Notes: generated by a model not told the origin, from the sequence alone. Counted from the stretch's first letter, positions 1 to 64,000 are shown. The stretch: DNA of 64,000 nt from an uncultured virus (IMG/VR IMGVR_UViG_3300029305_001143) (IMGVR_UViG_3300029305_001143), one strand, 5' to 3'. Program-made: numbers and translations.

Positions 1-101
1 GATACTATCAGGAGCTCACACTCTTCAGGAGCACAATTACCACTAGTTTTTATCTGTTGGTAAGAACACTCTGAGAGATTACACGCTACACATCTCTGCA
101 T
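1..101 (-). CDS. 5' fragment of a gene running off the window; possibly the Cys-rich UDG-like N-terminal domain of a phage DNA polymerase
   Basis: Read by hand: ATG at 101, MQRCVACNLSECSYQQIKTSGNCAPEECELLIV. The CxxCxL...G...LLIV pattern resembles family-4 UDG-like N-termini. It overlaps the end of the upstream kinase. Only 33 codons are visible. Confidence 0.4.
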   Translation of the reverse strand, partial: MQRCVACNLSECSYQQIKTSGNCAPEECELLIV

Positions 102-780
102 CATCTAAATCCTGCACCTCCATATCCTCCGCCAACTCACATCTCAGAGACTTAGGATCTACTTCACAATTCTTATCAGGGTGTCTGCAATAGCCATAGC
201 TATGATGACCACAACCCTCACACGTCTCAGAGAGTCTAGACAAACTATCATCATACTGATTCTCGAAGACAATATACTCTACTCCTGCTTCCTTGAAGCA
301 GATCTCATACTTCCGAGTATAGTTTAGAGCTTCCAGCCACATACACTCTAAGTCATCCTCGTCAAGATACTTCGTGAATCTACTCCTCTGGAATCTTTTA
401 TAACTTTCTTCATCACAAGTTACCAAGATATGGAGTACCTTCATATCTCTAAGCATCTTAGGATAATCTCTTGCTATCTCTAAATCATCATTGTACACAG
501 CACCACTAATAACTCCTCTATCAAAGAGCATAGCACAGGAACCTGAACTATGGTGGAAATGACTGAAGATATCCCAGAAGAATCCAGATACTTTCCATCT
601 ATCAGGCTGATGATGACTATACTTCTGCCAGAGATTATAGTCTGGACGGTAAGGTGTCACTTTGAGCACCTCAGATAATTTGTTCAGTACTCTACCCTTA
701 CCTACTCCATCATATCCTTCTACTACGATAGCATCGTAGCATAGCTTACTATTCTCGATTAATCTAATGAGATCTTCCAT
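79..780 (-). CDS. Nucleoside monophosphate kinase-like (thymidylate kinase fold) with a C-terminal Cys-rich tail
   Basis: P-loop VEGYDGVGKG, LFDRG motif, C-terminal CEGC..YCRHP..C..C. Start placed at ATG 780 behind GAGGAGG. Confidence 0.7.
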   Translation of the reverse strand: MEDLIRLIENSKLCYDAIVVEGYDGVGKGRVLNKLSEVLKVTPYRPDYNLWQKYSHHQPDRWKVSGFFWDIFSHFHHSSGSCAMLFDRGVISGAVYNDDLEIARDYPKMLRDMKVLHILVTCDEESYKRFQRSRFTKYLDEDDLECMWLEALNYTRKYEICFKEAGVEYIVFENQYDDSLSRLSETCEGCGHHSYGYCRHPDKNCEVDPKSLRCELAEDMEVQDLDDAEMCSV

Positions 781-799
781 ATAGCCTCCTCCTCTCACT

Positions 800-835
800 A
801 ATAAGAAACGTGGTGGAAGTTATAGATAACCTAAG
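800..835 (-). promoter_or_regulatory. Class B phage promoter motif
   Basis: CTTAGGTTAT-N13-CACGTTTCTTATT directly upstream of the kinase RBS. Confidence 0.55.
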
Positions 836-1428
836 TTTTGTAGATCACGTATGATAAATAGTGCTGCTTCTGTCTGATCTGAAGTATCAAGAGCTATAGC
901 ATTCTTGAGATTCTTGAATACTTCATAATATTGAAGCTCTATAGTTCTATTACCTTTGACACTATATATCTTATGGTCAGAACGGAACTTCTGCTTGACT
1001 ACTTTACTCTCATCATACTCCGTAATATAAATCCTGTCCACACTATCACGGAACTTTACGATACGCTCGATCATCTCAGCTTGCAGGTCTAATATAGCTC
1101 TGGAGCACCACATACTGACCATAGAATATGTTAGCAGGTCTACCCAGCAGCAATCCAAGAATACAAGATGATCCGTATCTTTGTACTTTTCTAGGTACTC
1201 CTCATAGTACTCCAGCACTTTAATAAGATACACACAGATGAAATCACTATCTCTGACTATCTCATCATAGCTACTAAATATGCCTTGATCTACTAGATTA
1301 GACCAGACAGTATTATACAAATCTGGACTGAAGACAACTCCAGAGGTCTCAGGATATATACTTAGGTAGTCTACTAATGAAGTCTTTCCTGTCTGAGCAG
1401 GACCTGATATTGCTACGAACTTAGCCAT
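820..1428 (-). CDS. P-loop nucleotide/nucleoside kinase-like (AAA_28/NadR-like)
   Basis: N-terminal ISGPAQTGKT, and LVFLDCCWVDLLTYS in the DR..D..Y position. Confidence 0.65.
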   Translation of the reverse strand: MAKFVAISGPAQTGKTSLVDYLSIYPETSGVVFSPDLYNTVWSNLVDQGIFSSYDEIVRDSDFICVYLIKVLEYYEEYLEKYKDTDHLVFLDCCWVDLLTYSMVSMWCSRAILDLQAEMIERIVKFRDSVDRIYITEYDESKVVKQKFRSDHKIYSVKGNRTIELQYYEVFKNLKNAIALDTSDQTEAALFIIRDLQNLGYL

Positions 1429-1440
1429 GATAAAATCTCC

Positions 1441-1480
1441 TTAAAAGAATAAGGGAGAGCTATAGGCAGCTCTCCCTTTT
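1441..1480. terminator. Intrinsic terminator-like hairpin
   Basis: AAGGGAGAGCT / AGCTCTCCCTT stem flanked by A- and T-rich tracts, just after the ThyX-like stop. Confidence 0.7.
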
Positions 1481-1484
1481 GATA

Positions 1485-6771: not shown

Positions 6772-7614
6772 TCACATAGAGTCCATCTGTGATATATCGA
6801 ACTTAGGGATAGACTCTAATCCTCCTCTTTTCACTTGTTGTAGGAAGCTCTGCAATTCCTCAGTACCTCTGATATGAGTGAGGAGAGATACTAGCAGCAT
6901 GACATTGATACCATAGCCATAGTCAGAGTAAGTGACTACAGGGATTCCTCTAGCATAAGCTTGCCCGATCATCCAAGATACGATAGTCTTCCTATCATCG
7001 ATGACAGCGATCATATACTGCACATCTCTGAAGATATCATCGATATTAGCATAGATCTGCTTGTGGTCTTCATACACCCAACGGATATTAGCTCCGCTCT
7101 CTACTACATAAGATGCAATCTTACTATCCACATCAGGGACACCTGCACCTACTAGCAGAACCTTTGAGCTAGGAGTAGTAGGCTTCACATAGACTTCCAG
7201 GAAGGCATCCAATGAGCTATAGTTGTAAAGAATACACTCGAACCCATCCATGATACCGAAGAATCTCTGAGAGATATTCTCTTTACTCAGAGCGAATCCT
7301 ACTACGGGAATGTTGTGAGCCATAGCATATCCGATCTCATAGATAGTACCTGGATCATTGTAGCTATCGATACTATCGATATTAGCTACTACCAAGTCAG
7401 CTCCTTCGATATGCTGGATATTGTCCTTGAAGATATTCTCACGGAGAGTAGTATCATGCTTCTGGTTAGGAGGTAGCATGAATCCGTCTCTACGAGGAGA
7501 GTAGAGATTAACCTTAGGATGCTTAGACAACATAGACTCCAAGCAATCCAGGATATCTCTAGTTCTCTCCGTGAACCATCCTCCTGCAAGGTAAATGGAT
7601 ACTTTATTATTCAT
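6772..7614 (-). CDS. Nucleoside 2'-deoxyribosyltransferase / nucleotide N-glycosidase family, tandem domains
   Basis: IYLAGGWF, YSPR, DPGTIYEIGYA in domain 1, and a second degenerate copy VSWMIGQAYARGIPVV. Start placed at ATG 7614 behind AAAGGGTG. Confidence 0.8.
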   Translation of the reverse strand: MNNKVSIYLAGGWFTERTRDILDCLESMLSKHPKVNLYSPRRDGFMLPPNQKHDTTLRENIFKDNIQHIEGADLVVANIDSIDSYNDPGTIYEIGYAMAHNIPVVGFALSKENISQRFFGIMDGFECILYNYSSLDAFLEVYVKPTTPSSKVLLVGAGVPDVDSKIASYVVESGANIRWVYEDHKQIYANIDDIFRDVQYMIAVIDDRKTIVSWMIGQAYARGIPVVTYSDYGYGINVMLLVSLLTHIRGTEELQSFLQQVKRGGLESIPKFDISQMDSM

Positions 7615-7644
7615 AGTTGACACCCTTTCAATCAATCTTCACAT

Positions 7645-9458: not shown

Positions 9459-11238
9459 CTAGCACACCTTCTTTCACTAATAAGGAACGTCGATACGATG
9501 TATCTGAGCCCATGATTCTACGTACTTCATCCAAGCACTCAGGAGAACTATCAATCCTGATGATACTACGAGTCTCAGGATTCATACACGCGATAGCTAA
9601 CTGTTCAGGATTCATCTCACCAAGTCCCTTATATCTGGTGATAGAGTATCCTTTCTTCAGATACTTAGTCTTTAACTCTTCATCATTGATAGGAATGAAC
9701 TTCTTACCTTCATATGTACCATAGAGAGGAGGAAGAGCTAAGTATAGATAACCAGACTCTACCATTTCAGGCATAGTAGCTAAGAAGAAGGAGATGAGCA
9801 GACAGGCAATATTCTTGCCATCCTCATCAGCATCCGTGAAGATAATGACCTTACTGTACCTAGACTTCCTGATATTGACATCGTCGAAGATACCAACATC
9901 AATACTAGATACAATAGTAGCTACCTCAGCATTCTTCAGTAGAGAAGCTGCATCTGCTGTGAATGCGTTAATGAACTTACCTCGAAGAGGTAGTACTGCC
10001 TGAGTATTCACATTTCTAGCTTGGATAGCAGAACCTGCAGCAGAGTTACCTTCTACGATGAAGAGCTCAGCTTGCTCTCTATCTTTAGTATTACAGTCAG
10101 CGAATCCCGAGACACCTAAGGTATTCAGGAATGTACTCTTCCTATCTCTACGTACATTACTTTTATTATTACGCTTGTTGATCTCGTTACGCTTATACTT
10201 GAGCAACTCAAGGATCTGAGTCTTCACCTCAGGATTCTGTCTGAAGTACTTACCTAACTCAGACTGGACAGTAGTCGTAATCCAAGCTCTCATATCCTTA
10301 GAGATAGCCTTAGTCTTAGCCTGACTATCATACTCTACTGCAGGATACATAGCAGAGACTGCAATGTTCAATCCGTAAGTAGCGTCTGTATTACTAAAGT
10401 AACTTACTATAGCATCATAGACTGCTCTTTCATGATCTCCGCCATTATGAGTATAAATGGAATTACAGTAAGTTCTCTGAGTAGTCTTGTTAGTATCCTT
10501 AGACCAATTCAGAGCTACCATCAAATTCTTAGACTTGATGAGTATAGAATCTTCCAGGAGAGGATCTTTAGAGAGAATCAAGAATTTTCTGAAGTCAGTG
10601 ACTTTTACTTCTTTGCTATTATATATAAAAGTAACATGAGGCATCAGAGTCTTCAGGAGAGAGATCTTATTCTCAATTTCTCTTTCATAGTCAGCTAAGC
10701 TATCAGTGAAAAGAGGATGCTCAGTATCAATATGATACATGACTCTCGTACCACTATCAGTCTTTAGCTTGTTCACTTTACCTTTATTATAATCAACCTC
10801 TTGACCATACTGGAACTCTGCACTAATCATATCCTCTCCTCTCCAAGAGGTTACCATCAGATCTCTGGAGAGAGCGTTGACAACAGTAGAGCCTACACCA
10901 TTGAGTCCTCCACTCATAGCATAAGACTCTTGATCGTACTTACCACCTGCATTGAGTTTCTGGTAGATGGCAAAGATAGTAGGCTTATTCAAGTCTTTGT
11001 TCATACCTTGAGGGAGTCCTCTACCATTGTCTTCGACAGCGATATAATTATTATTATAATCTAAAGTGAATATGATTTTATCGGCATAGCCATTCATGGC
11101 TTCATCGATAGCATTATCAGCAATCTCAGTCCACATTTGATAAGAAGGTCTATCCGTAGAGATATACATACTTGCTCTCGTACGGATATGCTCAATATCA
11201 GACAAGACCTTGATAGCATCATCATTATATGCTTTCAA
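9451..11238 (-). CDS. Type IIA DNA topoisomerase subunit B (GyrB/ParE-like)
   Basis: EIADNAIDE, DNGRGLP, GGLNGVG, VEGNSA, PLRGK, DADEDG, RYKGLGEM. TTG start with GGAGG RBS. Confidence 0.95.
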   Translation of the reverse strand: MKAYNDDAIKVLSDIEHIRTRASMYISTDRPSYQMWTEIADNAIDEAMNGYADKIIFTLDYNNNYIAVEDNGRGLPQGMNKDLNKPTIFAIYQKLNAGGKYDQESYAMSGGLNGVGSTVVNALSRDLMVTSWRGEDMISAEFQYGQEVDYNKGKVNKLKTDSGTRVMYHIDTEHPLFTDSLADYEREIENKISLLKTLMPHVTFIYNSKEVKVTDFRKFLILSKDPLLEDSILIKSKNLMVALNWSKDTNKTTQRTYCNSIYTHNGGDHERAVYDAIVSYFSNTDATYGLNIAVSAMYPAVEYDSQAKTKAISKDMRAWITTTVQSELGKYFRQNPEVKTQILELLKYKRNEINKRNNKSNVRRDRKSTFLNTLGVSGFADCNTKDREQAELFIVEGNSAAGSAIQARNVNTQAVLPLRGKFINAFTADAASLLKNAEVATIVSSIDVGIFDDVNIRKSRYSKVIIFTDADEDGKNIACLLISFFLATMPEMVESGYLYLALPPLYGTYEGKKFIPINDEELKTKYLKKGYSITRYKGLGEMNPEQLAIACMNPETRSIIRIDSSPECLDEVRRIMGSDTSYRRSLLVKEGVLVE

Positions 11239-11261
11239 GTTATCTCCTCCCTTACATTATT

Positions 11262-11289
11262 ATAATTCGTGATATCTTCTAGAATCCCT
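11262..11289 (-). promoter_or_regulatory. Class A promoter motif
   Basis: AGGGAT-N12-CACGAATTAT upstream of topoisomerase B. Confidence 0.7.
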
Positions 11290-11325
11290 TCCAGCTAGAC
11301 ATGAAATTCTATTTCATGGCTTCTT

Positions 11326-11452
11326 AAGCTTACATGCTAAGCATCTTATATAAAGATTATAATTATTTATAATTATAATATAGCTCCCCTATTTACGTAG
11401 TTGCTTGATTGCTCCGCAATCCTTGTAAGCATTAAAGCTTACATGCTAAGCA
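11326..11452. repeat. 18-bp direct repeat pair flanking an AT-rich tract
   Basis: AAGCTTACATGCTAAGCA at 11326-11343 and 11435-11452, with TTATAATTA-type AT-rich sequence at about 11345-11382. Confidence 0.85.
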
Positions 11453-11480
11453 ACGTTCTAAATCTTAAGGTTGAGCTACT
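11445..11480 (-). promoter_or_regulatory. Class B promoter motif firing leftward into non-coding DNA
   Basis: AGTAGCTCAA-N13-AACGTTGCTTAGC. Confidence 0.55.
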
Positions 11481-11497
11481 TTTATCATATCTCAGAA

Positions 11498-11533
11498 AGT
11501 AGCCTAACTATTGGATTACTCACGTTGCTTATT
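11498..11533 (+). promoter_or_regulatory. Class B promoter motif for the plus-strand operon
   Basis: AGTAGCCTAA-N13-CACGTTGCTTATT, followed by the AAGGAGG RBS and ATG 11566. Confidence 0.65.
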
Positions 11534-11565
11534 GTAGGAGATCAAACTCGAAGGAGGAGTACTAT

Positions 11566-12237
11566 ATGATTAACAATAAATTCCTGAAGATTACTGCTAG
11601 TCCTCTCATGAACTTAGACCATACATACAGATATAGTGGTACTAAGTTAGTTGAACCTGAATCTCTATCTCAGCATATTGTAGATACTATCATGATGGGG
11701 TTGAAGATTATCGATGAAGTTAACTTCATCGCAGGCAAGGAACTGCTAGACTCTAGCAAGTATCTCATGAAAGCTGTATGTCATGATCTGGAAGAAGTTA
11801 TCACAGGTGATATCCCTAGACCTCTGAAGTATTATAACGAAGATACTACTAAGTCTATGAAGGATGTAGCCGATCAGGTAGCTGATAAATTCTTCAGAGA
11901 GCAGTTTTATGCTCATGTGAGCTACTATGAAGCTTGGAGAGACGCTAAGGAAGATAAGGAAGGTTACATCTTAAAGATTGTAGATACTCTCGTAGTCGTG
12001 AGTAAGGTACTGAAGGAAGTGTCTATGCTTCATAACTTCTATATGTTGAGAGTCGCTCATGAAGTGTCTCAGTATCTGCAGGAGCTTATCAAATCTCCTA
12101 ATACATTATTCGAGGATGACGTGCAGAAATATATTAATGATCTACTCTATGGTGCTCTTACTGCTATGACTCGCACCCTTCGAGACAATGCAGATATCAT
12201 GCGTGATTTCAATATCCACAATTTATCTATGATTTGA
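11566..12237 (+). CDS. HD-domain deoxynucleotide phosphohydrolase (YfbR/DatZ-like)
   Basis: RYSG...ESLSQH, CHDLEEVITGDIPRPLKY, KIVD. Confidence 0.85.
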   Translation: MINNKFLKITASPLMNLDHTYRYSGTKLVEPESLSQHIVDTIMMGLKIIDEVNFIAGKELLDSSKYLMKAVCHDLEEVITGDIPRPLKYYNEDTTKSMKDVADQVADKFFREQFYAHVSYYEAWRDAKEDKEGYILKIVDTLVVVSKVLKEVSMLHNFYMLRVAHEVSQYLQELIKSPNTLFEDDVQKYINDLLYGALTAMTRTLRDNADIMRDFNIHNLSMI

Positions 12238-12246
12238 GGTGAGATA

Positions 12247-12963
12247 GTGAACTTATTCAAAAGAACTCTCATAATAACTCCACACTTTGATGATGAGACT
12301 ATAGGATGTGGAGGTCTGATGAGTAGCTTATCTATGAACCCTGATAATCAGATTAAGGTAGTAGTGGTAGCTACGAACAAGAGCACATATAATTATAATG
12401 TGAACAGAGTAGTCAATAATGATGAGAGAAAGTTAGAATCTATCAATGCACTAGCTGAACTAGGAGTCCCTAAAGAGTCTTTGATTCAGCTAGATGGGTT
12501 CGAAGATGGTAGACTTGATATGTGTGATAGAAAGTCACTAGTCACTGTGCTGGATAGTATCATCAGGACTTTCAAGCCTACTGCTGTACTATTCCCATAC
12601 AGTAGTCATCATCAGGATCATCAAGCAGTCTACCAGGCTAGTATAGCTGCTCTGAGACCTACTGTATCTACTAACTTCATTCAATTAAAGGCTATGTATG
12701 AGTACCCCTATGTCACTTCTTGGAGTAGCTCAGTCAATCCAGATAGTAAGCTTTATTATCCTCTGTCTAAGTTGGATATCGCTAGGAAAGAAGCAGCACT
12801 GAAAGCTTACAAATCTCAGCTAGTGAGAGACCCAAGAGATATCCTTGATGTTTCTTCTATCATTAACTTAGCTAAGGTCAGAGGTACTGAGATAGGACAC
12901 GACTATGCTGAAGCATTCTACCCTATGACTATTATAGCGAGGGATTGTTATGGTGACCAATAA
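12247..12963 (+). CDS. PIG-L/LmbE family N-acetylhexosamine deacetylase
   Basis: PHFDDETIGCGG, HHQDH, AYKSQ, AEAF. Confidence 0.9.
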   Translation: MNLFKRTLIITPHFDDETIGCGGLMSSLSMNPDNQIKVVVVATNKSTYNYNVNRVVNNDERKLESINALAELGVPKESLIQLDGFEDGRLDMCDRKSLVTVLDSIIRTFKPTAVLFPYSSHHQDHQAVYQASIAALRPTVSTNFIQLKAMYEYPYVTSWSSSVNPDSKLYYPLSKLDIARKEAALKAYKSQLVRDPRDILDVSSIINLAKVRGTEIGHDYAEAFYPMTIIARDCYGDQ

Positions 12964-13771
12964 TCATATACGTAGATACTTGAAGCTACCTGCATCTGAA
13001 AGAGAATTCCAGATAGAGAGAGTAGATGCTGTTAGCAATAATCAGAAGACTCTCATGTTCATCAACAAGCCTGGACTGGACTTGAAGAAATTAGATATCA
13101 GTAATAATTGTGTCTTCCTAGTAGATCCTATTTATCCAGAGTATGTCTCCAGCAGGAATGATTTCATTCGTGTAGATAATCCTAAATACAGATTCTGTCT
13201 CCTAGTGGAGTCTTTCGAGCTACCTTCTAGACTCCAGCTAGACTTCCTCAAGCTTGAACACTTTACTCCTACTAGCTACTGCAAAGAGTGTCTGATAGGT
13301 AACAATTGTCGTATCGATCCTGGAGCTATTATAGGAGGTACTGACTTCAGTCCTGTCATGGGAGATACTAGAGATCAGCTAGTACAATTCCCTCAGATGG
13401 GAGGAGTCATGATAGGAGACAATGTAGTCATTAAGTACAATACTATGGTAGGTAAAGGTACTTTCGGATTCACTGAAATCGGGAATAAAACTATGATAGA
13501 TTATAGCTGTCAGATAGGTCATAATTGTATCATAGGTAATTCTTGTATTATAGCAGCAGGTACTATTATCGGAGGTAGCACGAAGGTAGGTAACAACACT
13601 ACTATCGGTATTGGAGCTAAGATCAGGAATGGTATCAGTATAGGGTCTAATGTATCGATCGGTATGGGTTCTGTCGTCATAAAGGACGTACCTGATAATG
13701 CTGTAGTAGTAGGTAATCCTGCTAGGATTATTAATCATAAAGTTATTTTTGATGAAGGAGGTTTAGTATGA
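12950..13771 (+). CDS. Left-handed beta-helix N-acyltransferase (LpxD-like)
   Basis: Hexapeptide repeats, FPQMGGVMIGDNV, QIGHN (LpxD catalytic His position), VVVGNPAR. Confidence 0.85.
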   Translation: MVTNNHIRRYLKLPASEREFQIERVDAVSNNQKTLMFINKPGLDLKKLDISNNCVFLVDPIYPEYVSSRNDFIRVDNPKYRFCLLVESFELPSRLQLDFLKLEHFTPTSYCKECLIGNNCRIDPGAIIGGTDFSPVMGDTRDQLVQFPQMGGVMIGDNVVIKYNTMVGKGTFGFTEIGNKTMIDYSCQIGHNCIIGNSCIIAAGTIIGGSTKVGNNTTIGIGAKIRNGISIGSNVSIGMGSVVIKDVPDNAVVVGNPARIINHKVIFDEGGLV

Positions 13772-14892
13772 ATATCACTAACAAAGCAGACTTATTAGCT
13801 TCTCAGTCTCATTGTCATCTAGGAGTACCTAAGAGTAAAGAAAGAGATATTAATCTCGTCATCCGCACTTCAGGCTCTTCAGGTAATCCTCTATCTGTAG
13901 CTATGAATCAGATTGACTTCGAGAAGATTACTGATGTAGGAGCTAAGTGTTTCATCAATGCTGGAGTCAAGCCTGGTATGCGTATTATACATTGCTTGAA
14001 CTTCCAGATGTGGGCTGGAGGTGTACTGGACTTCCATAGTCTAATGAAGTCAGGAGCTGCAGCATTCCCTTATGGAGTAGGTAATACCAAAGAGCTCATC
14101 AACGCTATCATGTATTATGATATCGAAGGTATCTCTTGTACTCCTTCCTACATGCGTAGACTGAAAGAAGTATTACGTACTGAGTTCAATATGCACCCTA
14201 AGACTCTGGGATTGAAGTACGGATTCTTCGGAGGAGAGAGTGGATTACAGAGTCCTAACTTCCGTAAGAATATCGAGGAAGAGTGGGGTATCGAAGCTCT
14301 GAATGCTAACTACGGTTCCGCTGATAGTATCTCTATCTTAGCTTCAGAGAATTATAACACTAGAGATGGCTTGCAGTTCATGGCTAGTGATATTGCTAGA
14401 GCTAGTATCAAAGTAGGAGATCAGATCTTACCTCCTAGTAAGGGTCTCGTAGGTGAGCTATTGATTACTACTACCTATGAGGGAGGTCTCATCAATAGGA
14501 ACAATTACAATATCGGAGATATCGTAGAGGTTACTTCTGATGGTCCTGACTTTAAGTTTAATATTCTAGGAAGATCCGATGATATGGTAATTATCAGAGG
14601 ATTAAATGTGTATCCTAATGCTGTCCGAGATATTGTATCTGAAGTAGGTATGTCTCACGGACATCCTGAGATCACATGCCAGCTGTTAGTATCTAAAGAG
14701 GATCCGATTGAGAAAGCTGAGTTAATCTTCGATACAGACTTCATCCATCATGGTTTCCTCATTGAGGAGATTAGAGAAGCTATCAGCAAGGAACTTCGTG
14801 ATAGATTATCTCTCAGTATCCCTGTACACTATAGCGACCTAGAGATGTCTGCTAATATGAAAATCAAGCAAGTAAGGAGGGTATTAGAGTGA
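13768..14892 (+). CDS. Adenylate-forming acyl-CoA ligase (phenylacetate-CoA ligase PaaK-like)
   Basis: RTSGSSGNP, CTPSY, GGE, NYGSAD, YNIGD, GRSDDMVIIRGLNVYP. Confidence 0.85.
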   Translation: MNITNKADLLASQSHCHLGVPKSKERDINLVIRTSGSSGNPLSVAMNQIDFEKITDVGAKCFINAGVKPGMRIIHCLNFQMWAGGVLDFHSLMKSGAAAFPYGVGNTKELINAIMYYDIEGISCTPSYMRRLKEVLRTEFNMHPKTLGLKYGFFGGESGLQSPNFRKNIEEEWGIEALNANYGSADSISILASENYNTRDGLQFMASDIARASIKVGDQILPPSKGLVGELLITTTYEGGLINRNNYNIGDIVEVTSDGPDFKFNILGRSDDMVIIRGLNVYPNAVRDIVSEVGMSHGHPEITCQLLVSKEDPIEKAELIFDTDFIHHGFLIEEIREAISKELRDRLSLSIPVHYSDLEMSANMKIKQVRRVLE

Positions 14893-15962
14893 GTCGTAAG
14901 TATGAGTTCAAACAACTAATCAGCAAGCATCTTCGTGACAAGTTAGATTATCTAAAAGAGACTTACGGAGAAAAGTCTCCTGAATATCTTTCCATTTACA
15001 ATCAGTATGTCTATAATGAGATGGAAGATAATCAGACAGATGAAGTCAATGCTAAGCACTACGAAGCTGGATGTAGTGATGGTTTGGTGAAGAATCTGGA
15101 GAGACTATATCAGAGACATGGATGCGTAGAGATTGCTTGGAGTTGCGTATCTAACTGTAGATATTGTCTTCGTAGTAACTACGAGGATCATACTTTACTA
15201 AAAGACGAGAATTTAAGAGCTATCGCAGAATATTGCAGAGACAACAGTCTTGAAGAGTTGCTGATTACAGGAGGAGATCCTTTCTGTAATCCTAAGGCTC
15301 TGAGTATCCTGCTAGGATATCTCTACGAGATAGCTCCTAATGTGCAGATTTATCGGATCGCTACTAGAATGATTACGCAGTCTCCTGACTCTATCCCTGA
15401 GAAAGTATTCGCTATCTTAGAGAGATATAGTAAGTTGAAGAGAGTAGAAGTAGCTACTCAGATCAATTCTCATTGTGAGTTCGACGATAAGGTAGATGCA
15501 GTCATCCGTAGGATCCAGAGTATGGGTATCACTATCTATTCTCAGAACGTATTCTTAAAGGGAGTGAATGATACTCCTGAGCAGCTCATCGAATTGTATC
15601 ACTCCATGCGTATGAGAGGTATTGAAGCTCACTACCTATTCCATGCAGTACCTATGAAAGGTACCCACCATCTCAGACCTTCTGTAGCTAGTATGATCTA
15701 CTGCTACGAGAATTTAGTGAATTCAGGTAGAGTCACTGGACGTAGTAAGCCTATCATGGCTATTATGTCACAGATAGGTAAAATTACACTGACTCCTGAT
15801 AATGTCATCGCTTATAATCCTAAGCAGTATACTGTGACTCTTAGATCTAACTACAAATATGTAGATCGTATGAGATACAATCCTCATTGGCAGATCCCTG
15901 AGTCTGCTTATGTAGATGATAATGGTTACTTGTGTATCAATTACCTTGATGGAGAGAGTTAA
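14889..15962 (+). CDS. Radical SAM amino-acid 2,3-aminomutase (KamA/lysine 2,3-aminomutase family)
   Basis: CVSNCRYCLR (CxxxCxxC), LITGGDP, RIATR, SQNVFLKGVND, HYLFH, and GK at the PLP-lysine position. Confidence 0.85.
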   Translation: MSRKYEFKQLISKHLRDKLDYLKETYGEKSPEYLSIYNQYVYNEMEDNQTDEVNAKHYEAGCSDGLVKNLERLYQRHGCVEIAWSCVSNCRYCLRSNYEDHTLLKDENLRAIAEYCRDNSLEELLITGGDPFCNPKALSILLGYLYEIAPNVQIYRIATRMITQSPDSIPEKVFAILERYSKLKRVEVATQINSHCEFDDKVDAVIRRIQSMGITIYSQNVFLKGVNDTPEQLIELYHSMRMRGIEAHYLFHAVPMKGTHHLRPSVASMIYCYENLVNSGRVTGRSKPIMAIMSQIGKITLTPDNVIAYNPKQYTVTLRSNYKYVDRMRYNPHWQIPESAYVDDNGYLCINYLDGES

Positions 15963-15972
15963 GGAGGATATT

Positions 15973-17040
15973 ATGAAGCTCTGTATCTGCACACTGCACA
16001 ATTCGTTTGCACCTAATGAAGTAGGAGGAGGTAGTTCCGCTCCTATCTACTTCTATGACCAGATGAAGAATTACTTCGATGAAGTAGATATCATCACTCT
16101 CAGAGATAATAAGAATTACCAGACTCCGTTCGCTTCGGAGGTAGCATACCGTAGCGATCCTGCAGTCTTGGAGAAGTATGATTTCGTCATCTTCACTGCT
16201 CCAGGACTGACTTACGAGAAGTATGAAGAGGTCAATCGTAATAAGTACGTGGATATACTGAATCATGCTAAGAAGTTTGCATTCATGTGTCATGAGGAGA
16301 ATGACCGTAAGCTCTATCCTTACTACATGAATTTCTTGACGCATCCCAACATGACCTTCGTACTGTTCAACTGTCCTACTATGGCTACGTTCACATTCCC
16401 TGATTATGTAGAGACTGCAGGAGATTGGGACTATGTTAGCTTCTGTCCTATCCTGCCTACTAAGGAAGAGATCTTGGAGAGAGCTAAGCTCAAGAAGGAC
16501 AAGATCATGTCTACTTGTAGATGGACTACCTCTAAGAGAATCTTTGAGTATCTATCCATGACTGAAGACTTCATCAATAATGGTATCGAAGTGCATGCAG
16601 CAGGAGCTCATCAGAGTTACTGGTATAATCTGAAGATGGAAGAGTTACCTTCTAAGAACTACACAGACCATGGATACTTCGAACCTAGTCAGGTACCTGA
16701 GCTTCTCTCTGATGTGAAGTACCACTGGAATTTCTTGTTCCAGCTGAGAGGTATGGGTCAGAAGACTCATCAGCCTAGACTGGAAGTGGCTACTATGGAA
16801 GCTTTCAGAGAAGGATGTTTGCCTGTCATCTGTAAGGAGTTCACTCCTGACTGGGTAGGAGAAGACTCTGCTGTACGTATCAGTAAGAATGACTATACTA
16901 ATCTCCCTTCTATCCTAGGAGCTATGTCTGATGAGGAGAGATTGGATCGTCTCAGTAAGTTCTATGACTTAGTAGAGGAGCATGTATTATCTCATTACGC
17001 AGAGATCAGAGATCATATACTGAAGGTTTGTTCGGAGTAA
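15973..17040 (+). CDS. GT-B glycosyltransferase resembling T-even DNA glucosyltransferases
   Basis: CRWTTSK and FQLRGMGQKTHQPRLEVATMEAFREGCLPVI resemble, from recall, T4 alpha-glucosyltransferase (GRTTTWK; YQLSKLNQKYLQRSLEYTHLELGACGTIPVF). Start placed at ATG 15973 behind AAGGAGG. Confidence 0.7.
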   Translation: MKLCICTLHNSFAPNEVGGGSSAPIYFYDQMKNYFDEVDIITLRDNKNYQTPFASEVAYRSDPAVLEKYDFVIFTAPGLTYEKYEEVNRNKYVDILNHAKKFAFMCHEENDRKLYPYYMNFLTHPNMTFVLFNCPTMATFTFPDYVETAGDWDYVSFCPILPTKEEILERAKLKKDKIMSTCRWTTSKRIFEYLSMTEDFINNGIEVHAAGAHQSYWYNLKMEELPSKNYTDHGYFEPSQVPELLSDVKYHWNFLFQLRGMGQKTHQPRLEVATMEAFREGCLPVICKEFTPDWVGEDSAVRISKNDYTNLPSILGAMSDEERLDRLSKFYDLVEEHVLSHYAEIRDHILKVCSE

Positions 17041-29770: not shown

Positions 29771-29809
29771 AGTAGGGTAGTCAGATTATCGAACTCTGAC
29801 TACCCTACT
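29771..29809. other. 15-bp perfect hairpin
   Basis: AGTAGGGTAGTCAGA / TCTGACTACCCTACT, with no T-tract on the sense strand. Confidence 0.7.
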
Positions 29810-30355: not shown

Positions 30356-30520
30356 GTGATTACCTCCTCAATCAATTAATATTATGTCTCAACTTTATCG
30401 ATATAGAGACTGCAAGTAGTTCTGAATATAGTCACTTAATGAGACTCACGTTATTTAGTTAATTTATGTTACATTCATTCCCCACTGAGTCGGGGTTCTC
30501 TCAACGTCGTTTCATCGATG

Positions 30521-40897: not shown

Positions 40898-40919
40898 AGT
40901 CACGATATTGCACAGTAGA

Positions 40920-42278
40920 TTAGATGACAGTCTTAGAGTCGCCGCAGTTCAGGACCAGAGTAGCAGTGCCGTTCTTCAGCAGGTCAACGGAAACACCAGT
41001 GACAACGAAGTCGGTGCCATTCTTGTTACCGTCAACACCAGAGATGCTCTGAAGAGCAGTGTTAGCAGTACCAGCAACAGTGGACAGCTCCTCGCCCAGA
41101 CTCTCGATAGCATCAGCATTAGCAGCAACGTCAGCCACCAGACCAGCGTCAGCATTGCCAACGACATCTTCCAGAGCCTTGGCACGATCCTGCAGAGCCT
41201 TGTCAGCATCCTCACGAGCCTTAGCCTCCAGAGCCAGAGCAGCAGCAGCGGTAGCCTCAGCAGCAGCCTGAGCACCATTCCACTTAGCTACATCGCCATC
41301 CAGAATCTTATCCAGCTCAGTCTGGTTGCCGTGAGTGTGAGCATCCTCTTCCAGTTCAGCGATAGCAGCCTCAGCGTCAGCCATCTGCTTAATCAGGCCA
41401 GTAGCCTCAGCTCCATCCTTAGCAGGCTCACCAACCTTCTCCTCCAGAGCAGTCAGACGAGTACCTTCAGCAGAGACATCGCCCAGCTCATGGAACACAC
41501 CATTGTGGAAGACGTACTCCTTGTCGCCATAGACAACAACGTCACCAGCCTCATAGCCTTCGACGTCATAACCATCAGCAGTAGGATCGGAGTCAACAGT
41601 GCCTTCGAAGTGCATAGCACCAGTCAGACCCTTGATCTGCTCCTGCAGAGTGTCGATCTCACTCTCAGCAGTATTCAGACGACCATCAATCTTGGAGACA
41701 TTCTCATCGGTCTTCTCCAGATTTGCGATGGTAGCATAGGTAGCAGCAGCAGTAGCGGACTTCAGGAAGTCGCCGATCTTCTCGCCAGAGTCAACGATGG
41801 CACCATCAGCACCGAAGTTAACGATGTTGCCAGCAGTACCCTCAACCTTGTCAACCTTAGTAGACAGGTCGATGTCCAGAGCTACCAGATCCTTGTACTC
41901 GGTCTCAGTAGCTTCCTTGTGCTTGATGATCAGCTGATTGTTCTTATACTCGAAAGTGTAAGTGGTGTTAGTGTCCTGAATCTCACCAGCGATGAACTCT
42001 TCCAGTCCAGAGATCTCCTCAGCAGTGTAGGAAGGCTTGTTAGCTTCCTTAGCCCAGCTGTAGACATCACCAGCTGTCGCCTGAATCCAAGGGAGCTGCT
42101 TGAAAGTCTTCTCACCATCGCCGACCTTGATGCCGATGGCAGGAGGAGTCAGACCAGTCTCAGTCTGCTGAGCAGGGATAGCAGCAATAGCTAACTCGCC
42201 AGCATTCAGTACGATAGTAGACTCTTGCCAACGCTCGTAAGTATCATACTTGTGGCTAATTCTTACATTTAGTGACAT
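40920..42278 (-). CDS. Probably abundant fibre/whisker-like coiled-coil virion protein with Mtd-N-like start
   Basis: VLNAGE...IKVGDG..FKQLPW, a long coiled coil, and capsid-like codon bias. Start placed at ATG 42278 behind GGAGG. Confidence 0.6.
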   Translation of the reverse strand: MSLNVRISHKYDTYERWQESTIVLNAGELAIAAIPAQQTETGLTPPAIGIKVGDGEKTFKQLPWIQATAGDVYSWAKEANKPSYTAEEISGLEEFIAGEIQDTNTTYTFEYKNNQLIIKHKEATETEYKDLVALDIDLSTKVDKVEGTAGNIVNFGADGAIVDSGEKIGDFLKSATAAATYATIANLEKTDENVSKIDGRLNTAESEIDTLQEQIKGLTGAMHFEGTVDSDPTADGYDVEGYEAGDVVVYGDKEYVFHNGVFHELGDVSAEGTRLTALEEKVGEPAKDGAEATGLIKQMADAEAAIAELEEDAHTHGNQTELDKILDGDVAKWNGAQAAAEATAAAALALEAKAREDADKALQDRAKALEDVVGNADAGLVADVAANADAIESLGEELSTVAGTANTALQSISGVDGNKNGTDFVVTGVSVDLLKNGTATLVLNCGDSKTVI

Positions 42279-55265: not shown

Positions 55266-55310
55266 AACTCATTCTCCTCTCGGATTAGGTAACTTCTTCC
55301 TTACATTATT

Positions 55311-55338
55311 ATAATTCGTGATATATCTCTATATCCCT
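55311..55338 (-). promoter_or_regulatory. Class A promoter motif
   Basis: AGGGAT-N12-CACGAATTAT. Confidence 0.7.
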
Positions 55339-55342
55339 TTAA

Positions 55343-60467: not shown

Positions 60468-60959
60468 TCACCTCCGTAGGAACTTACCTTGCTCAATATC
60501 TCGAGCGATAGAGTTCCAGTTCATAGGTAGAACGGAGATAGCAGAATAGCAGTGTTTACACATGACTCCCTGTAACTTAGGATTCCTAATCTTAGGGAAT
60601 CTATGCTCATCTCTATCCTCATTAGTATCTAACTGAGTCAGTATGTACTTATAACCCCAATAGAGATACGCAGGACAGTTACAGCTGATCTTGACATCTC
60701 CTGCTAGAGCAAGTCTTACTTTATCTCTAACAGTCATATCCTCATCTTCTGCAACTTCTGCATAGTCCAAGAGACTAATCTTGACGACATAATTCCTAGG
60801 AGGTTGAGTAGTGACTGAAGGTACTCGGAAGAATACTGTATAGTCTTCTGTGATGCCTAGATATCTAGCTTGTCGAACTAGCTTAGCCTTATCCTTAGTC
60901 CATTTATCTACATCAGCTACTAGATCTTTTCTAGTGAGCTCATCGATTCTCTTGCTCAT
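60468..60959 (-). CDS. SWIM-type zinc-finger protein
   Basis: SCNCPAYLY...MCKH. Confidence 0.6.
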   Translation of the reverse strand: MSKRIDELTRKDLVADVDKWTKDKAKLVRQARYLGITEDYTVFFRVPSVTTQPPRNYVVKISLLDYAEVAEDEDMTVRDKVRLALAGDVKISCNCPAYLYWGYKYILTQLDTNEDRDEHRFPKIRNPKLQGVMCKHCYSAISVLPMNWNSIARDIEQGKFLRR

Positions 60960-60972
60960 AAGCTCACCATCC

Positions 60973-61680
60973 TCAGACTCTGATACCCCAACGTAGGTTC
61001 TGGAATTCGTTCACTAGTCTAGATTCGATATCCTGCTTCTCACTCATACCTTCAGACACTAAAGAGTCTCCATCTAACTGAATAGCTCCTGGAGCAGACT
61101 GCAGCTTTCTACGGATATTTCCTTCGATAATCTTGCAGAGAGCGAGTGCATACTCTTTCACTCTCTGTAGTACATCTACATCTTCGATCTCCTCTATGTT
61201 ACGATACTGTCTAAAGTATCTAACGCAGAGTTTATCTCCGTCATGATTACTAATGTAGAGTTTATGAGTACTCTTCTCGAATCTCCAGTCAGTCAGTCTT
61301 ACGAAGCTTTGCAGTGTGGATACTGCATTCTTCTGCATCAAGAAGATATAAGGATCACTCAGGTCATTGTAGTTGTAGAGATATCTACTGACAGAGAATA
61401 AGTCAGTATCATCAGCGACTACTCTAGCCTTAGTAGCAGAAGGTTTATCTAAGTTTAGTATCTCTACGACCGTAGTCGTATCGACAGGTAACTGGATACT
61501 ACCTCCTGATACATCGAACACTTCTGTACATACATAAGGAGCATAAACACTAATCTTCCTCAATGCTTCCTTGACCTTAGTCTCGATAGAAGAGTCACTG
61601 ATACCTAGAGAGTTGATATCGCATCCTAGATCAACTTTAATCTCTTGTACTAAATCCTCTAATAGCACGAGGTAGCTCAT
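60973..61680 (-). CDS. Neck / head-tail adaptor (T4 gp13-like)
   Basis: KEYALALCK..GNIRRK...IQLDGDSLVSEG; follows the capsid gene. Confidence 0.7.
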   Translation of the reverse strand: MSYLVLLEDLVQEIKVDLGCDINSLGISDSSIETKVKEALRKISVYAPYVCTEVFDVSGGSIQLPVDTTTVVEILNLDKPSATKARVVADDTDLFSVSRYLYNYNDLSDPYIFLMQKNAVSTLQSFVRLTDWRFEKSTHKLYISNHDGDKLCVRYFRQYRNIEEIEDVDVLQRVKEYALALCKIIEGNIRRKLQSAPGAIQLDGDSLVSEGMSEKQDIESRLVNEFQNLRWGIRV

Positions 61681-61706
61681 CTCCTTTCAGTAAGTTTATA
61701 GAGAAA

Positions 61707-61735
61707 TAGGGGAGGAGGATCTCCCTCCTCCCCTA
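61707..61735 (-). terminator. Intrinsic terminator after the major capsid gene
   Basis: TAGGGGAGGAG / CTCCTCCCCTA followed by TTTCT on the minus strand. Confidence 0.7.
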
Positions 61736-61770
61736 CTCTTGAGCCTAAATGCTCATTGAGAGACAACTAA

Positions 61771-63207
61771 TTAGATAGCAGGCACCATGCGAGTAGCAGA
61801 GAAGTTCTTGATAGAACCCTTAGCATACAGCTTGTTGTTCAGCATGATCTGACCATAGGAAGTAGCCAGACCCTTGCGGAAGATGAAGTCGTCCAGTACC
61901 TGAGTAGGAGTAGCGTACAGAGGCATGTAAGGAGCATAGACGAAGCCAGCATCCAGCCAAGAGCTACCCTTGTAGCCGAGCACGAAGTGGTCAGCATTGT
62001 AGAAGGGGTTCTTGTAGACAGTCCACTTGTTGGACAGAGTACCGATCTTGTGAGGACCATTGATCTGCTTAGTGCCCAGAGAGTCAGCCTTGAACTCTTC
62101 CAGAGTCTCGATGATGTTACACACATTGACACCAGCGATGATGAAGTTAGCTCCAACACGCTTAGTGCTAGTGAAGATCTTGTTGCTCATCTCAGTGAAC
62201 ATATCGATGATAGTACGCTTGTACTCCTGGTAGCTCAGAGAAGACTTGGGATTCTGGCAGTCCCACTCGAAGCCAGTGTGAGCAGCCTTAGCATACAGTT
62301 CCTTCAGCAGCTCGCCGTCGATCTCGAACTTGATCTCGTTGGACATAGCAGTGACCAGCTCGGACTCAGCGTCGATGCCCTTCATCTTCTGCAGTTCGAA
62401 GCCAGCATCAAGCAGCCAACGAGCACGCAGCTTGCGAGGGAAGGCTTCCAGAGACACAGAAGCCAGATCCAGATCGATCTGAGAGAAACCAGTGGTAGTC
62501 AGATCCATGTCGTAGCGATAGTCGACAGTGATAGGAGCGTCAGCAGCAGGAGCAGTGGTGAACTGCATGACTAGAGCACCAGTAGCATAGTTGATAGTAC
62601 CAGTGACACCAGCACCCTCGATAGCACCCTCGCCATTATCAGTAGCCAGGATACCGCCAGCATTGATAGCCACAGTGCCCTTGCGCAGAGGAGTGTAAGC
62701 CAGAGCGACAGAGAACTCGGTCTTAGAGCCATCACCTAGACCAGCAGACTCACCGAAGATTCTGTCATTGGAGAAGTTGAACTCTCCATCCTGACCAGTG
62801 AAGGGGTTGTTCAGAGCAGTGCCCTGCTGAACAGTGCCCTTGTTATTACCATACAGATACTGCAGGTAGAAGATAGCACCATGCTTGGCGTTCATAGGCT
62901 GAACGGACACGATCTCGTGAGCGATCAGGTTAGGAACAGTAGCGGAGATGACATCGAAGCCATAGTCGATGAAGGTACCCAGGTTAACAGCACGAGTAGT
63001 CTCGTCCATACGAGCAGCGTACTGATAGGTGTTCTCCAGCAGAGTAGCAGTGGTAGCGATGATAGTGTCGGAGATAGAAGTCTTGTTCTTCTCCTGATAT
63101 CCTTCACGGATAGCGACAGTGTAGTCTTTCCATCTACGAGACTCAGACAGATCTAAGCCACGAGCAATGACACTCTCAGCGAGAGTCTTGTTATTACTGA
63201 ACTTCAT
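61771..63207 (-). CDS. Major capsid protein (T4 gp23 family)
   Basis: PNLIAHEIVSVQPM, RKLRARW, LGYKG, DAGFVYAPYMPL; strong codon bias. Confidence 0.95.
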   Translation of the reverse strand: MKFSNNKTLAESVIARGLDLSESRRWKDYTVAIREGYQEKNKTSISDTIIATTATLLENTYQYAARMDETTRAVNLGTFIDYGFDVISATVPNLIAHEIVSVQPMNAKHGAIFYLQYLYGNNKGTVQQGTALNNPFTGQDGEFNFSNDRIFGESAGLGDGSKTEFSVALAYTPLRKGTVAINAGGILATDNGEGAIEGAGVTGTINYATGALVMQFTTAPAADAPITVDYRYDMDLTTTGFSQIDLDLASVSLEAFPRKLRARWLLDAGFELQKMKGIDAESELVTAMSNEIKFEIDGELLKELYAKAAHTGFEWDCQNPKSSLSYQEYKRTIIDMFTEMSNKIFTSTKRVGANFIIAGVNVCNIIETLEEFKADSLGTKQINGPHKIGTLSNKWTVYKNPFYNADHFVLGYKGSSWLDAGFVYAPYMPLYATPTQVLDDFIFRKGLATSYGQIMLNNKLYAKGSIKNFSATRMVPAI

Positions 63208-63223
63208 TGTGAATTAACCTCCA

Positions 63224-64000
63224 TTATACTTTTGATACTATAGCAGCCAACCCTGACAGCTTTCTATCCTTCTTGAGGATCTCACTCTCAGTCAGAGTTT
63301 GACTCTCAATCTTGATCTTAGCTGGACGAGTTCTACCTAGTGAAGACAGAGAATTCAATCTATTCTCGATTTCTTCGTCAGTAGTCGCTCCTTCTAGCAG
63401 CTCCGATACTTTACTATAAGACATGCCACGCTTTTCAACAGCTAGCTGCTTCTGAGTCTCAATAAGCTTCTCCTGCATCTGATCGTAATCTTCTCTAGTC
63501 AGCGAAGATTCCTTCAGAGAATTGTAAGCTTCTTGGAGCTTGAACATATTCTTGAGTAGCTTCTTGTACTTAGACTCAGACTCTTTTAGCTCTTGCTTCA
63601 GACTCTTGATCTGTTCTCTTGACTTGACTAATAGCTCAGTATCTGATTCGATAGTAGCTTGTGAAGATTCTAATAGACTTCTTAGACTATTGATCTCCAC
63701 TTCTTGTATATTAATCTCTTCGTTAGGAGTAGTCTTCCTCTCGATGAGAGATTCACGGATTCTATGTATCATATCCCGGATAGATTGAGTCTCTACTGCT
63801 TCATTCAAAGGTAGCTTAGACTCGATATAGTGTAAGCTATCAGAGAGCTCAGTAGATTTATCTGGAGATAAGATAGCGCTAGCGAATGATGGATCAGCTA
63901 CTAAGTCATAAGTGATAAGCTTCAACTGAGTAACATCTACTCCATCTCTAACTTGTCTAGTAGCTCCCAGACCTCTGGAAGAGATACCTAAGGGAATGCC
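63224..64000 (-). CDS. Prohead protease (T4 gp21-like) fused to a coiled-coil scaffold, 5' truncated by the window
   Basis: The frame is open to 64000: GIPLGISSRGLG...TYDLVADPS, then a coiled coil. Confidence 0.85.
   Translation of the reverse strand, partial: GIPLGISSRGLGATRQVRDGVDVTQLKLITYDLVADPSFASAILSPDKSTELSDSLHYIESKLPLNEAVETQSIRDMIHRIRESLIERKTTPNEEINIQEVEINSLRSLLESSQATIESDTELLVKSREQIKSLKQELKESESKYKKLLKNMFKLQEAYNSLKESSLTREDYDQMQEKLIETQKQLAVEKRGMSYSKVSELLEGATTDEEIENRLNSLSSLGRTRPAKIKIESQTLTESEILKKDRKLSGLAAIVSKV

Follow-up and report, generated by a model that had tools for sequence, protein, structure and literature searches.

G/C-only sequence purged and A/T-containing sites kept in an SP-15-related phage, most likely through thymines shielded by bulky sugars

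Introduction

The window analysed here, a 64,000-nt stretch of DNA from an uncultured virus (IMG/VR IMGVR_UViG_3300029305_001143), is about half of a myophage genome related to Bacillus phage SP-15; along it G/C-only stretches have been purged and A/T-containing cut-sites kept, most likely through thymines shielded by bulky sugars. We infer an altered form of SP-15-type thymidine glyco-hypermodification, in which the phage probably swaps much of its thymidine for a hydroxyl-bearing C5-substituted uracil to which sugar is afterwards attached, as in SP-15, YerA41 and Carin-5. The SP-15 base is a glucosylated, phosphoglucuronated 5-dihydroxypentyluracil (available text of PMC5977210), and thymidine glycosylation is proven in only three SP15-like phages, its generality across the group being posed as a question in the accessible part of PMC13697223. 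The window's T4-like major capsid protein (61771-63207, - strand) has HSE3, SP-15 and LIS04, the last a cultured relative, as its best named matches (41-42%), and three relatives, G001-G003, stood in for the genome half beyond the window. Proteins identical to those of the window also occur on a contig of 122 kb.

A/T-free sequence is avoided along the window

Exact counts over the 64,000 bases give five GGCC, five CCGG, six GCGC and one CGCG; these 17 G/C-only palindromes compare with 80.7 expected from a second-order Markov model and with a mean of 117 (sd 9.4, minimum 93) when synonymous codons were permuted in 52 genes over 200 shuffles. They are the four lowest-ratio tetramers among all 256 (0.08-0.25 by the Markov model, with the fifth lowest at 0.67), and the depletion named in the original prediction, which might have vanished on correction for composition and codon usage, survives both controls. 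The four GGCC sites listed there are real, but a fifth, at 32342, was overlooked; CGCG, of which none had been noticed, occurs once (9589) and still has one of the four lowest ratios. The claim that A/T-containing palindromes are abundant stands for their sum (2220 for the eight mixed palindromes against 2034 expected from codon shuffling) and for the raw counts of AGCT (566), CTAG (413), GTAC (353), GATC (341), TCGA (238) and TGCA (201), but by Markov expectation GATC (0.70), CTAG (0.82), CATG (0.81) and ACGT (0.77) are mildly low. CCWGG and GGWCC, at 68 observed against 92 and 30 against 44 by codon shuffling, both fall slightly under all shuffles.

The avoidance extends beyond palindromes. 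Non-palindromic all-G/C tetramers reach only 0.19 of their base-composition expectation and number 230 against 412 after codon shuffling, so A/T-free runs are avoided generally and palindromes additionally. Equal rarity of these tetramers had been put forward as evidence against modification; they are indeed rare, so that this objection holds by half, yet palindromes make up only 17 of the 267 G/C-only 4-mers in the window (6%, as against 25% in T4). G/C runs longer than 6 are absent, AA/TT is low (rho 0.64; 6430 against 7814 by codon shuffling), and Val and Leu codons end in G/C at a frequency of 0.20 ahead of a G/C-G/C codon versus 0.62 ahead of an A/T codon, which means that the depletion spans codon junctions. 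By composition counts and codon shuffles, AA/TT, G/C runs and G/C-only palindromes are jointly depleted across positions 1-64000 and restriction-type sites that include A or T are kept, a pattern that is even along the window except at 30001-32000 (- strand). There, a less-ameliorated accessory-gene block adjoining the tail-fibre gene has a G/C-triplet index of 0.62 (0.26-0.45 elsewhere) and holds two of the five GGCC sites, with a third nearby at 32342, in agreement with the foreign-looking cassette that had been noted. Gapped G/C palindromes (gaps 2-9) show no consistent deficit against dinucleotide expectation, their counts tracking codon periodicity, and for CCSGG/GGSCC a maximal-order Markov model is uninformative because its expectation falls to about 1.

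The signature recurs in phages with glycosylated thymine

The G/C-triplet ratio lies at 0.54-0.77 in 16 of 17 SP-15-like or ThyX-like sets, whereas all 15 controls, at 0.92-1.04, are free of the signature. Among its bearers are three genomes with proven glycosylated thymine, namely SP-15, YerA41 and Carin-5. SP-15 resembles the window in composition (G/C palindromes 16/191, GATC 0.69), with the AA/TT loss stronger in the window (0.64 versus 0.90). YerA41 and Carin-5 have triplet ratios of 0.54-0.55, the palindrome deficit of Carin-5 being weaker by Markov expectation (0.70), and oligosaccharide-modified thymine, akin to what we propose here, is described for these phages of the SP15-like polymerase group (available portions of PMC9023294, PMC12686479 and PMC13697223). 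EP_H11 is without the G/C-run signature (0.92) and RP13 without a palindrome deficit (104/105), while HSE3 carries the signature with neither a ThyX-like nor a glycosyltransferase match in its record, which may be incomplete. Two ThyX-like gene carriers, G002 (145/149) and G007 (29/31), retain their G/C palindromes by Markov expectation and keep the run depletion. A C5 methyltransferase as the reason for the escape of G002 was not supported, none being detected in G001, G002 or G003.

Loss of GGCC and CGCG is not by itself diagnostic of a modified base, since phages P100, K and Bastille purge GGCC too (GGCC/CGCG ratios 0.05/0.28 in P100 and 0.00/0.00 in K). These three phages hold no GATC and no GGWCC at all, against 341 and 31 in the window. 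Kruger and Bickle reportedly described the loss of GGCC and CGCG in hmU- and U-containing Bacillus phages in 1983; in our counts both sites are nearly absent from SPO1 (hmU) and AR9/PBS1 (U), as in the window, but there GCWGC and CCWGG, which the window spares, are purged too, and G/C runs are not depleted. The available portion of PMC6286503 does not mention hmU, uracil, SPO1 or GGCC. The informative features are thus the retained GATC, CCWGG and GGWCC sites together with the general loss of G/C runs. Our literature searches found no description of a composition signature of thymine hypermodification, although supplements and subscription papers could have one.

A natural pair is provided by two phages outside the window lineage. 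The siphovirus-like G006 encodes a divergent ThyX adjoining a dCMP deaminase and a dUTPase, shows the signature (G/C palindromes 0/70) and replicates with a DnaE polymerase, of a family unlike that of the window lineage; its relative G008, whose shared proteins reach 40-61% identity, carries a 239-aa ThyX of the standard kind, is without the signature, and contains no GATC, CTAG, GTAC, TCGA or GGWCC in 12.4 kb. This is a single independent pair (n = 1), the signature being otherwise largely confounded with one phage lineage.

Such comparisons bear on an explanation that needs no shielding, in which a context-dependent mutational bias (C lost in CC, CG and GC, T in TT) is combined with host restriction systems directed against G/C palindromes. 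The loss of GGCC and CGCG in P100 and K, phages with no known modification, would fit it, as would the tendency of the G/C-run signature to follow one lineage and the palindromes kept by G002 and G007 despite run depletion. We nevertheless consider it unlikely: the four palindromes drop jointly, GATC, CCWGG and GGWCC persist although they are purged in the Firmicutes-phage controls, the signature is present in G006 with its DnaE polymerase and missing from the relative with a standard ThyX, and the window carries modification genes.

Nucleotide-pool genes argue for a thymine target

The edge of the window cuts a family A DNA polymerase whose N-terminal ~34 residues (approximately 1-105, - strand) match the start of the G001 polymerase, which comprises UDG, exonuclease and DNA_pol_A domains. 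The N-terminal UDG fusion is present in G001 and G002 and is shared with the YerA41/Carin-5 group (accessible parts of PMC9023294, PMC12686479 and PMC13697223), whose hosts, however, are Gram-negative and whose polymerases differ from the shorter ones here (980-997 aa in the relatives of the window). The SP15-like polymerase subfamily is characterised by three large insertions; in the BLAST ranking, LIS04 and SP-15 come together with Bastille and SPO1. Two dNMP-kinase-like proteins follow on the - strand, the first at 79-798 (phrog_761 thymidylate kinase, E 2e-6) and the second, a P-loop protein, at 820-1428 (AAA_28, E 3e-5; TIGR00041, E 7.5e-4, below cut-off).

Beside them lies a divergent, C-terminally extended ThyX-fold protein of 356 aa (1485-2555, - strand; Thy1), a candidate dUMP C5-modifying enzyme that is 44.5% identical to LIS04_124. 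A profile-profile match (prob 89.9, E 1.7e-6) to the SP-15 gp130/Carin-5/GXN1/YerA41 set suggests kinship with the second ThyX-like genes that SP-15, Carin-5 and YerA41 carry. The window-family profile matches YerA41 (6e-7) and misses SP-15, and the reverse profile matches six relatives and misses the window protein, so that the tie to SP-15 gp130 (~20% identity) runs through YerA41 and relatives rather than through a direct match. A profile search of the genome contigs database with this family gave no confirmed match. As G001, G002 and LIS04 have only one Thy1 match each, the divergent ThyX could simply be their thymidylate synthase.

Further pool functions are suggested by a nucleoside 2-deoxyribosyltransferase-like protein (6772-7635, - strand), common to SP-15 (gp127), LIS04, YerA41, Carin-5 and GXN1, and by an HD 5'-deoxynucleotidase of YfbR/DatZ type (11566-12237, + strand; 35% to SP-15 gp90), which we interpret as a nucleotide-pool editor. 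No dCMP deaminase, an enzyme that could supply dUMP, was detected in G001, G002 or G003, which counts against the proposed route; SP-15 and LIS04 have one, and the window is a partial genome. Within the window, searches returned no tRNA, no reverse transcriptase and, at 11150-11700, no sigma-70 consensus.

The thymine/uracil target originally predicted is supported by the ThyX-fold protein, the UDG-fused polymerase N-terminus and a homologue of SP-15 gp153 described below. Adenine, the alternative then offered, could be replaced or modified (as 2-aminoadenine or acylated adenine) without any difference in strand-symmetric composition, and the HD protein matches phrog_7076 (E 1e-24), which is annotated as dATP triphosphohydrolase. 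That HD family is found in thymine-modified SP-15 and Carin-5 as well, PurZ is missing from all three relatives (control 14/14) and neither PurZ nor PurA appeared in the window scan, and three Z-phages show no G/C-run depletion (0.97-1.01), with phiVC8 purging GATC (4/136); we regard an adenine target as very improbable.

A putative glycosylation and tailoring cassette

Downstream of the deoxynucleotidase on the + strand, sequence matches outline a likely tailoring cassette of four genes: a PIG-L/BshB-type N-acetylglucosaminide deacetylase (12247-12963), an LpxD-like hexapeptide acyltransferase (12950-13771; TIGR01853, E 6e-37, below cut-off), a PaaK-like acyl-adenylate/CoA ligase (13768-14892) and a KamA-family radical-SAM/PLP 2,3-aminomutase (14889-15962). 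In alignment with 2A5H, aminomutase residues C86, C90 and C93 (CxxxCxxC), R95 and K298 meet their counterparts, R95 and K298 being, we presume from KamA, the carboxylate-binding Arg and the PLP Lys. KamA Asp293 and Asp330, which we take to bind the lysine side chain (a role for which our literature searches found no support), align to V254 and M293.

The next gene encodes a GT-B glycosyltransferase (15976-17040, + strand) homologous to SP-15 gp153 (33%, E 9e-68; HMM E 3e-93), so that an enzyme of the SP-15 linker-decorating cluster type is present; that cluster, genes 146-155, is proposed to decorate the modified uracil (available text of PMC5977210). The predicted structure of the window's enzyme (pLDDT 90.9) has T4 alpha-glucosyltransferase as closest solved fold (Foldseek TMq 0.72; Z 26.3, rmsd 3.4, 333 aligned), with BshA near behind (Z 23.9), and points to an AGT/BGT-like DNA glycosyltransferase fold. 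A profile search of G003-G007 with this enzyme returned nothing, YerA41 and Carin-5 have no gp153-type match in common with the window, and in G004 and G005 genes of ~380 aa look like a BGT-type enzyme by eye only, matching no Pfam or PHROG family.

T4 alpha-glucosyltransferase acts on hydroxymethylcytosine, and its fold, together with a broad family profile that reaches T4 (E 6e-7, presumably near the agt region), might suggest glycosylated cytosine. The original prediction disfavoured cytosine, and we likewise give it only a very small chance: a ThyA-fold dCMP or dUMP hydroxymethylase, detected in the T4 and SPO1 controls, is absent from G001, G002 and G003, as is a C5 methyltransferase, and T4 presents the reverse of the window's pattern, retaining G/C palindromes (217/207) and losing GATC (0.33).

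Alternatively, the cassette could glycosylate virion proteins or the host surface, with the DNA bearing at most a small modification introduced through the core ThyX-like gene. Its aminomutase, ligase and acyltransferase derive from surface-glycan loci (legionaminic, pseudaminic and others): around bacterial aminomutases the ligase and the hexapeptide transferase each occur in 28 of 40 loci, and the six of these 40 loci that were scanned (42 proteins) are glycan-biosynthesis clusters. The cassette is also exchanged among relatives, G002, G004 and G005 carrying a GT4 and a methyltransferase. In the window, however, the module is joined, within a phage, to a DNA-type glycosyltransferase matching gp153 and, as first gene, a deoxynucleotidase, and small thymine changes, as in SPO1 and AR9, fail to spare the GCWGC or CCWGG that the window spares. 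We find a non-DNA role improbable. The originally suspected link between operon and thymine target is refined in that the + strand operon looks like the tailoring module and the base-specifying genes lie outside it.

Thymine glycosylation would follow SP-15 in part. The related capsid, gp153-type transferase, gp127 and gp90 counterparts, composition and, through the indirect tie above, a divergent ThyX are shared. Scans of the window and of G001 proteins showed none of the TagF-like, UDP-glucose dehydrogenase, GalU and reductase genes of SP-15, and the deacetylase, acyltransferase, ligase and aminomutase stand in their place. Carin-5, too, has genes for a deacetylase and a HexNAc transferase (portions available of PMC9023294, PMC12686479 and PMC13697223).

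Proposed pathway and implications

From the observed composition, homologies, folds and comparative pattern, we propose which base is targeted, how it is modified, in what order, and what selection lies behind the pattern. A modified dUMP would be made by the ThyX-like enzyme, the pool edited by the kinases, HD nucleotidase and deoxyribosyltransferase, and the base incorporated by the UDG-fused polymerase. The AGT-like enzyme would then add a sugar, probably GlcNAc, the deacetylase would free an amine, and aminomutase, ligase and acyltransferase would attach a beta-aminoacyl group, the predicted precursor being a neutral amino acid rather than lysine. Each A:T pair could thus bear a bulky major-groove shield; A/T-containing sites, mostly protected, would drift near expectation, and exposed A/T-free patches would be removed by selection, above all the four G/C palindromes cut by common type II enzymes. 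Modified T in the flanks can, however, block enzymes with G/C-only sites as well (PMC6449724). Avoidance of neighbouring same-strand TT is plausibly steric.

More tentatively, and as a conjecture that may well fail, phages with bulky glycosyl-thymine would space the shield evenly, avoiding both G/C runs of at least 3 and same-strand TT clumps, the codon-corrected G/C-triplet ratio would predict the chemistry, and the extended ThyX would be the long-missing linker enzyme, transferable to unrelated phages; here the DNA sugar would be N-acylated with a beta-amino acid by a module captured from surface-glycan loci of bacteria, and our literature searches found no example of such a modification of DNA.

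Glycosylated-thymine DNA often resists standard sequencing, and a composition signature combined with a marker gene family would make such phages selectable from metagenomes, with kept sites weighing more than palindrome loss, which alone is insufficient to imply a modified base. The linker and glycan steps, so far unsolved, now have specific candidate enzymes. The swappable cassette may generate variety in the DNA glycan, comparable to that of bacterial surface antigens, and G/C-triplet depletion may be a candidate sequence signature of hidden DNA chemistry.

Depletion of G/C-Only Motifs in the Window

In the window, whose G+C content is 40.8%, GGCC, CCGG, GCGC and CGCG occur 5, 5, 6 and 1 times, and a second-order Markov correction leaves these four palindromes as the lowest-ratio tetramers (0.21, 0.25, 0.25 and 0.08, respectively; next lowest 0.67). 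The G/C-only palindrome depletion put forward in the original prediction is real, as it also survives permutation of synonymous codons within 52 window genes (17 observed versus a mean of 117 and a minimum of 93 in 200 shuffles). Non-palindromic G/C-only tetramers are not equally rare: they are depleted (230 versus 412 in codon shuffles), but the palindromes far more so. This wider G/C avoidance is a second layer that the original prediction overlooked: G/C triplets in window genes drop to 1467 versus 2180 in shuffles, G/C runs reach at most six where base composition predicts 66 runs of 7–9, and Val/Leu third positions are G or C in 20% of cases ahead of a G/C-G/C codon versus 62% ahead of an A/T codon. 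AA/TT is low too (6430 versus 7814). The pattern is even across the window with the sole exception of 30–32 kb, and the modification cassette holds 0 G/C palindromes versus 4.9 expected.

The accompanying claim that A/T-containing palindromes are abundant holds for the total of the eight mixed palindromes (2220 versus 2034 in codon shuffles); GATC, CTAG, CATG and ACGT have mildly low Markov ratios (0.70–0.82). In the codon test GATC stands at 316 versus 341, and CCWGG (68 versus 92) and GGWCC (30 versus 44) fall slightly under every shuffle. Long antisense ORFs opposite real genes, at 40908–42194 (+, 428 aa) and 61987–62574 (+, 195 aa), look like shadows of codon bias. A 54-bp intergenic motif, present in two 85% identical copies (11238–11290 and 55287–55339), reads on the minus strand as an element that contains TATAAT and is probably a phage promoter; the first copy sits immediately 5' of the gene for the topoisomerase large subunit. 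A ~40-bp inverted repeat separating minus-strand genes (29771–29809) is possibly a terminator.

The Signature in Relatives and Control Phages

The window phage is a myophage encoding T4-like capsid, sheath and baseplate proteins together with amidase/M23/NlpC enzymes, topoisomerase II, helicases and primase, from which we infer a Gram-positive host; among named phages, its capsid protein best matches those of HSE3, SP-15 and LIS04 (41–42%). Three relatives stand in for the genome half outside the window: G001 (112 kb, with gene order and cassette as in the window), G002 and G003. G001 carries a gene with a Spo0A C-terminal domain (L017:8127–8510), suggesting a spore-forming Firmicutes host, and shares an anaerobic ribonucleotide reductase with G002; in G003 a reverse transcriptase adjoining tail genes (L112:6526–7623) possibly marks a diversity-generating retroelement.

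T-glycosylating phages are already known, and older literature describes hmU Bacillus phages that have lost sites made only of G and C; literature searches listed no account of G/C-run depletion as a signature or of the window's modification cassette. We compared codon-corrected G/C-triplet ratios, with named records mostly sampled in part (39–160 kb). The ratio is 0.67 in the window, 0.64 in G001, 0.72 in G002, 0.63–0.70 in G003–G007, 0.64 in HSE3, 0.73 in SP-15, 0.65 in both LIS04 and GXN1, 0.54 in Carin-5, 0.55 in YerA41, 0.77 in RP13, 0.56 in RHph_TM30 and 0.92 in EP_H11, the last being the exception among 17 SP-15-like or ThyX-like sets otherwise below 0.78. Fifteen controls of our choosing (SPO1, SP10, AR9, T4, P100, K, Bastille, G, 0305phi8-36, S-2L, phiVC8, SH-Ab 15497, phiW-14, ViI and 9g), with modification labels taken partly from cited papers and partly from general background, span 0.92–1.04.

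P100, K and Bastille share the GGCC purge with the window, yet have zero GATC and GGWCC. SPO1 and AR9, which carry small changes to T, purge GCWGC (6/73 and 3/17), whereas the window keeps it (128 versus 128 in codon shuffles). This purge is consistent with the resistance of hmU DNA to only ~8% of enzymes, as given in PMC7653180. The retention of A/T-containing sites, unlike in SPO1 and AR9, therefore suggests a bulky shield.

A Probable Modification Cassette with a Putative Glycosyltransferase

The + strand cassette (11566–17040) holds genes for an HD deoxynucleotidase, PIG-L deacetylase, LpxD-like acyltransferase, PaaK-like ligase and KamA-like aminomutase, and last for an unannotated 354-aa protein. 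The model of the latter, built from 34 sequences (pLDDT 90.9), most closely resembles T4 alpha-glucosyltransferase (TMq 0.72; Z 26.3, rmsd 3.4, 333 aligned), followed by BshA (Z 23.9), pointing to a predicted glycosyltransferase fold. The protein is homologous to SP-15 gp153 (33% identity, E 9e-68), encoded in the gene 146–155 cluster that PMC5977210 proposes to decorate dihydroxypentyluracil.

The aminomutase keeps the iron-sulfur cysteines, Arg and PLP Lys of lysine 2,3-aminomutase, with KamA Asp293 and Asp330 replaced by Val and Met; literature searches on the roles of these residues brought up nothing. Its bacterial homologues have a ligase nearby at 28/40 loci, a hexapeptide transferase at 28/40 and a deacetylase at 5/40. 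The neighbors scanned (42 proteins, 6/40 loci) are legionaminic/pseudaminic, NDP-sugar and glycosyltransferase genes, and we infer a beta-aminoacyl amino-sugar; that the cassette targets proteins or surfaces is nevertheless unlikely in our estimate.

At the same position G002 and the related contigs G004 and G005 carry another cassette (HD, deacetylase-like, GT4 and methyltransferase). In G004 and G005 it closes with ~380-aa unannotated genes (L115:9072–10220 and L118:3450–4586) that resemble T4 BGT-type glycosyltransferases by eye alone, with no match in Pfam and PHROG searches.

Thymidine as the Probable Target

Outside its cassette, the window encodes two kinase-like genes, a 356-aa ThyX-fold protein and a deoxyribosyltransferase common to SP-15, LIS04, YerA41, Carin-5 and GXN1. 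SP-15 has a second ThyX-like gene, gp130, a hypothesized dUMP modifier (PMC5977210). Profile alignment of the window ThyX family with the gp130/Carin-5/GXN1/YerA41 set gives probability 89.9 and E 1.7e-6; the window-family profile matches YerA41 and misses SP-15, and the reverse profile matches six relatives and misses the window protein, so that kinship to gp130 would be indirect. The polymerase start at the window edge matches the G001 UDG-PolA fusion, a trait of the T-modified phage group in PMC13697223, although SPO1-like polymerases have it as well.

PurZ, a ThyA-fold hydroxymethylase and a C5 methyltransferase are absent from all three relatives. Adenine and cytosine are each a highly improbable modified base in our estimate; the predicted T/U target rather than cytosine is supported. 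dCMP deaminase is likewise absent from all three, which counts against thymidine glycosylation.

Alternatively, lineage mutational bias combined with the host restriction repertoire could shape the composition, an explanation to which we give little credence. G006, an unrelated phage contig with siphovirus-like head genes and DnaE polymerase, shows the signature (G/C palindromes 0/70). It also carries what may be a compact locus for uracil modification (L122:4432–10794), where the divergent ThyX lies next to a dCMP deaminase and is accompanied by two SDR reductases, a dUTPase/5'-nucleotidase and an FAD protein. In the related G008, whose 239-aa ThyX is of the standard kind, run depletion is not marked, and GATC, CTAG, GTAC, TCGA and GGWCC all number zero in 12.4 kb; this single natural pair goes some way towards separating the signature from lineage. 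HSE3 shows the signature without the modification genes; its 124-kb 'complete' record MF418016 (L014, L107) lacks the ligase, SbcCD, ThyX-like and GT region of its relatives and the whole region after the polymerase in LIS04, and may therefore be incomplete.

G/C palindromes are kept by Markov expectation in G002 (145/149), G007 (29/31) and RP13 (104/105); palindrome loss is therefore a host- or cassette-dependent layer, and run depletion the steadier trait. G002, a complete-looking genome, carries a SAM recycling set of LuxS, SAM synthetase and an MTA/SAH-nucleosidase-like gene (60516–61046 and 93165–96239; L003, L027).

We consider it likely that a C5-linked, glycosylated and aminoacylated uracil stands in for T, partly or fully, and that selection would purge the A/T-free patches left without this shield. 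Partial substitution, described for SP-15 (over 50%; PMC5977210) and YerA41 (~56%; PMC9023294), would account for A/T-containing sites remaining mildly below expectation.
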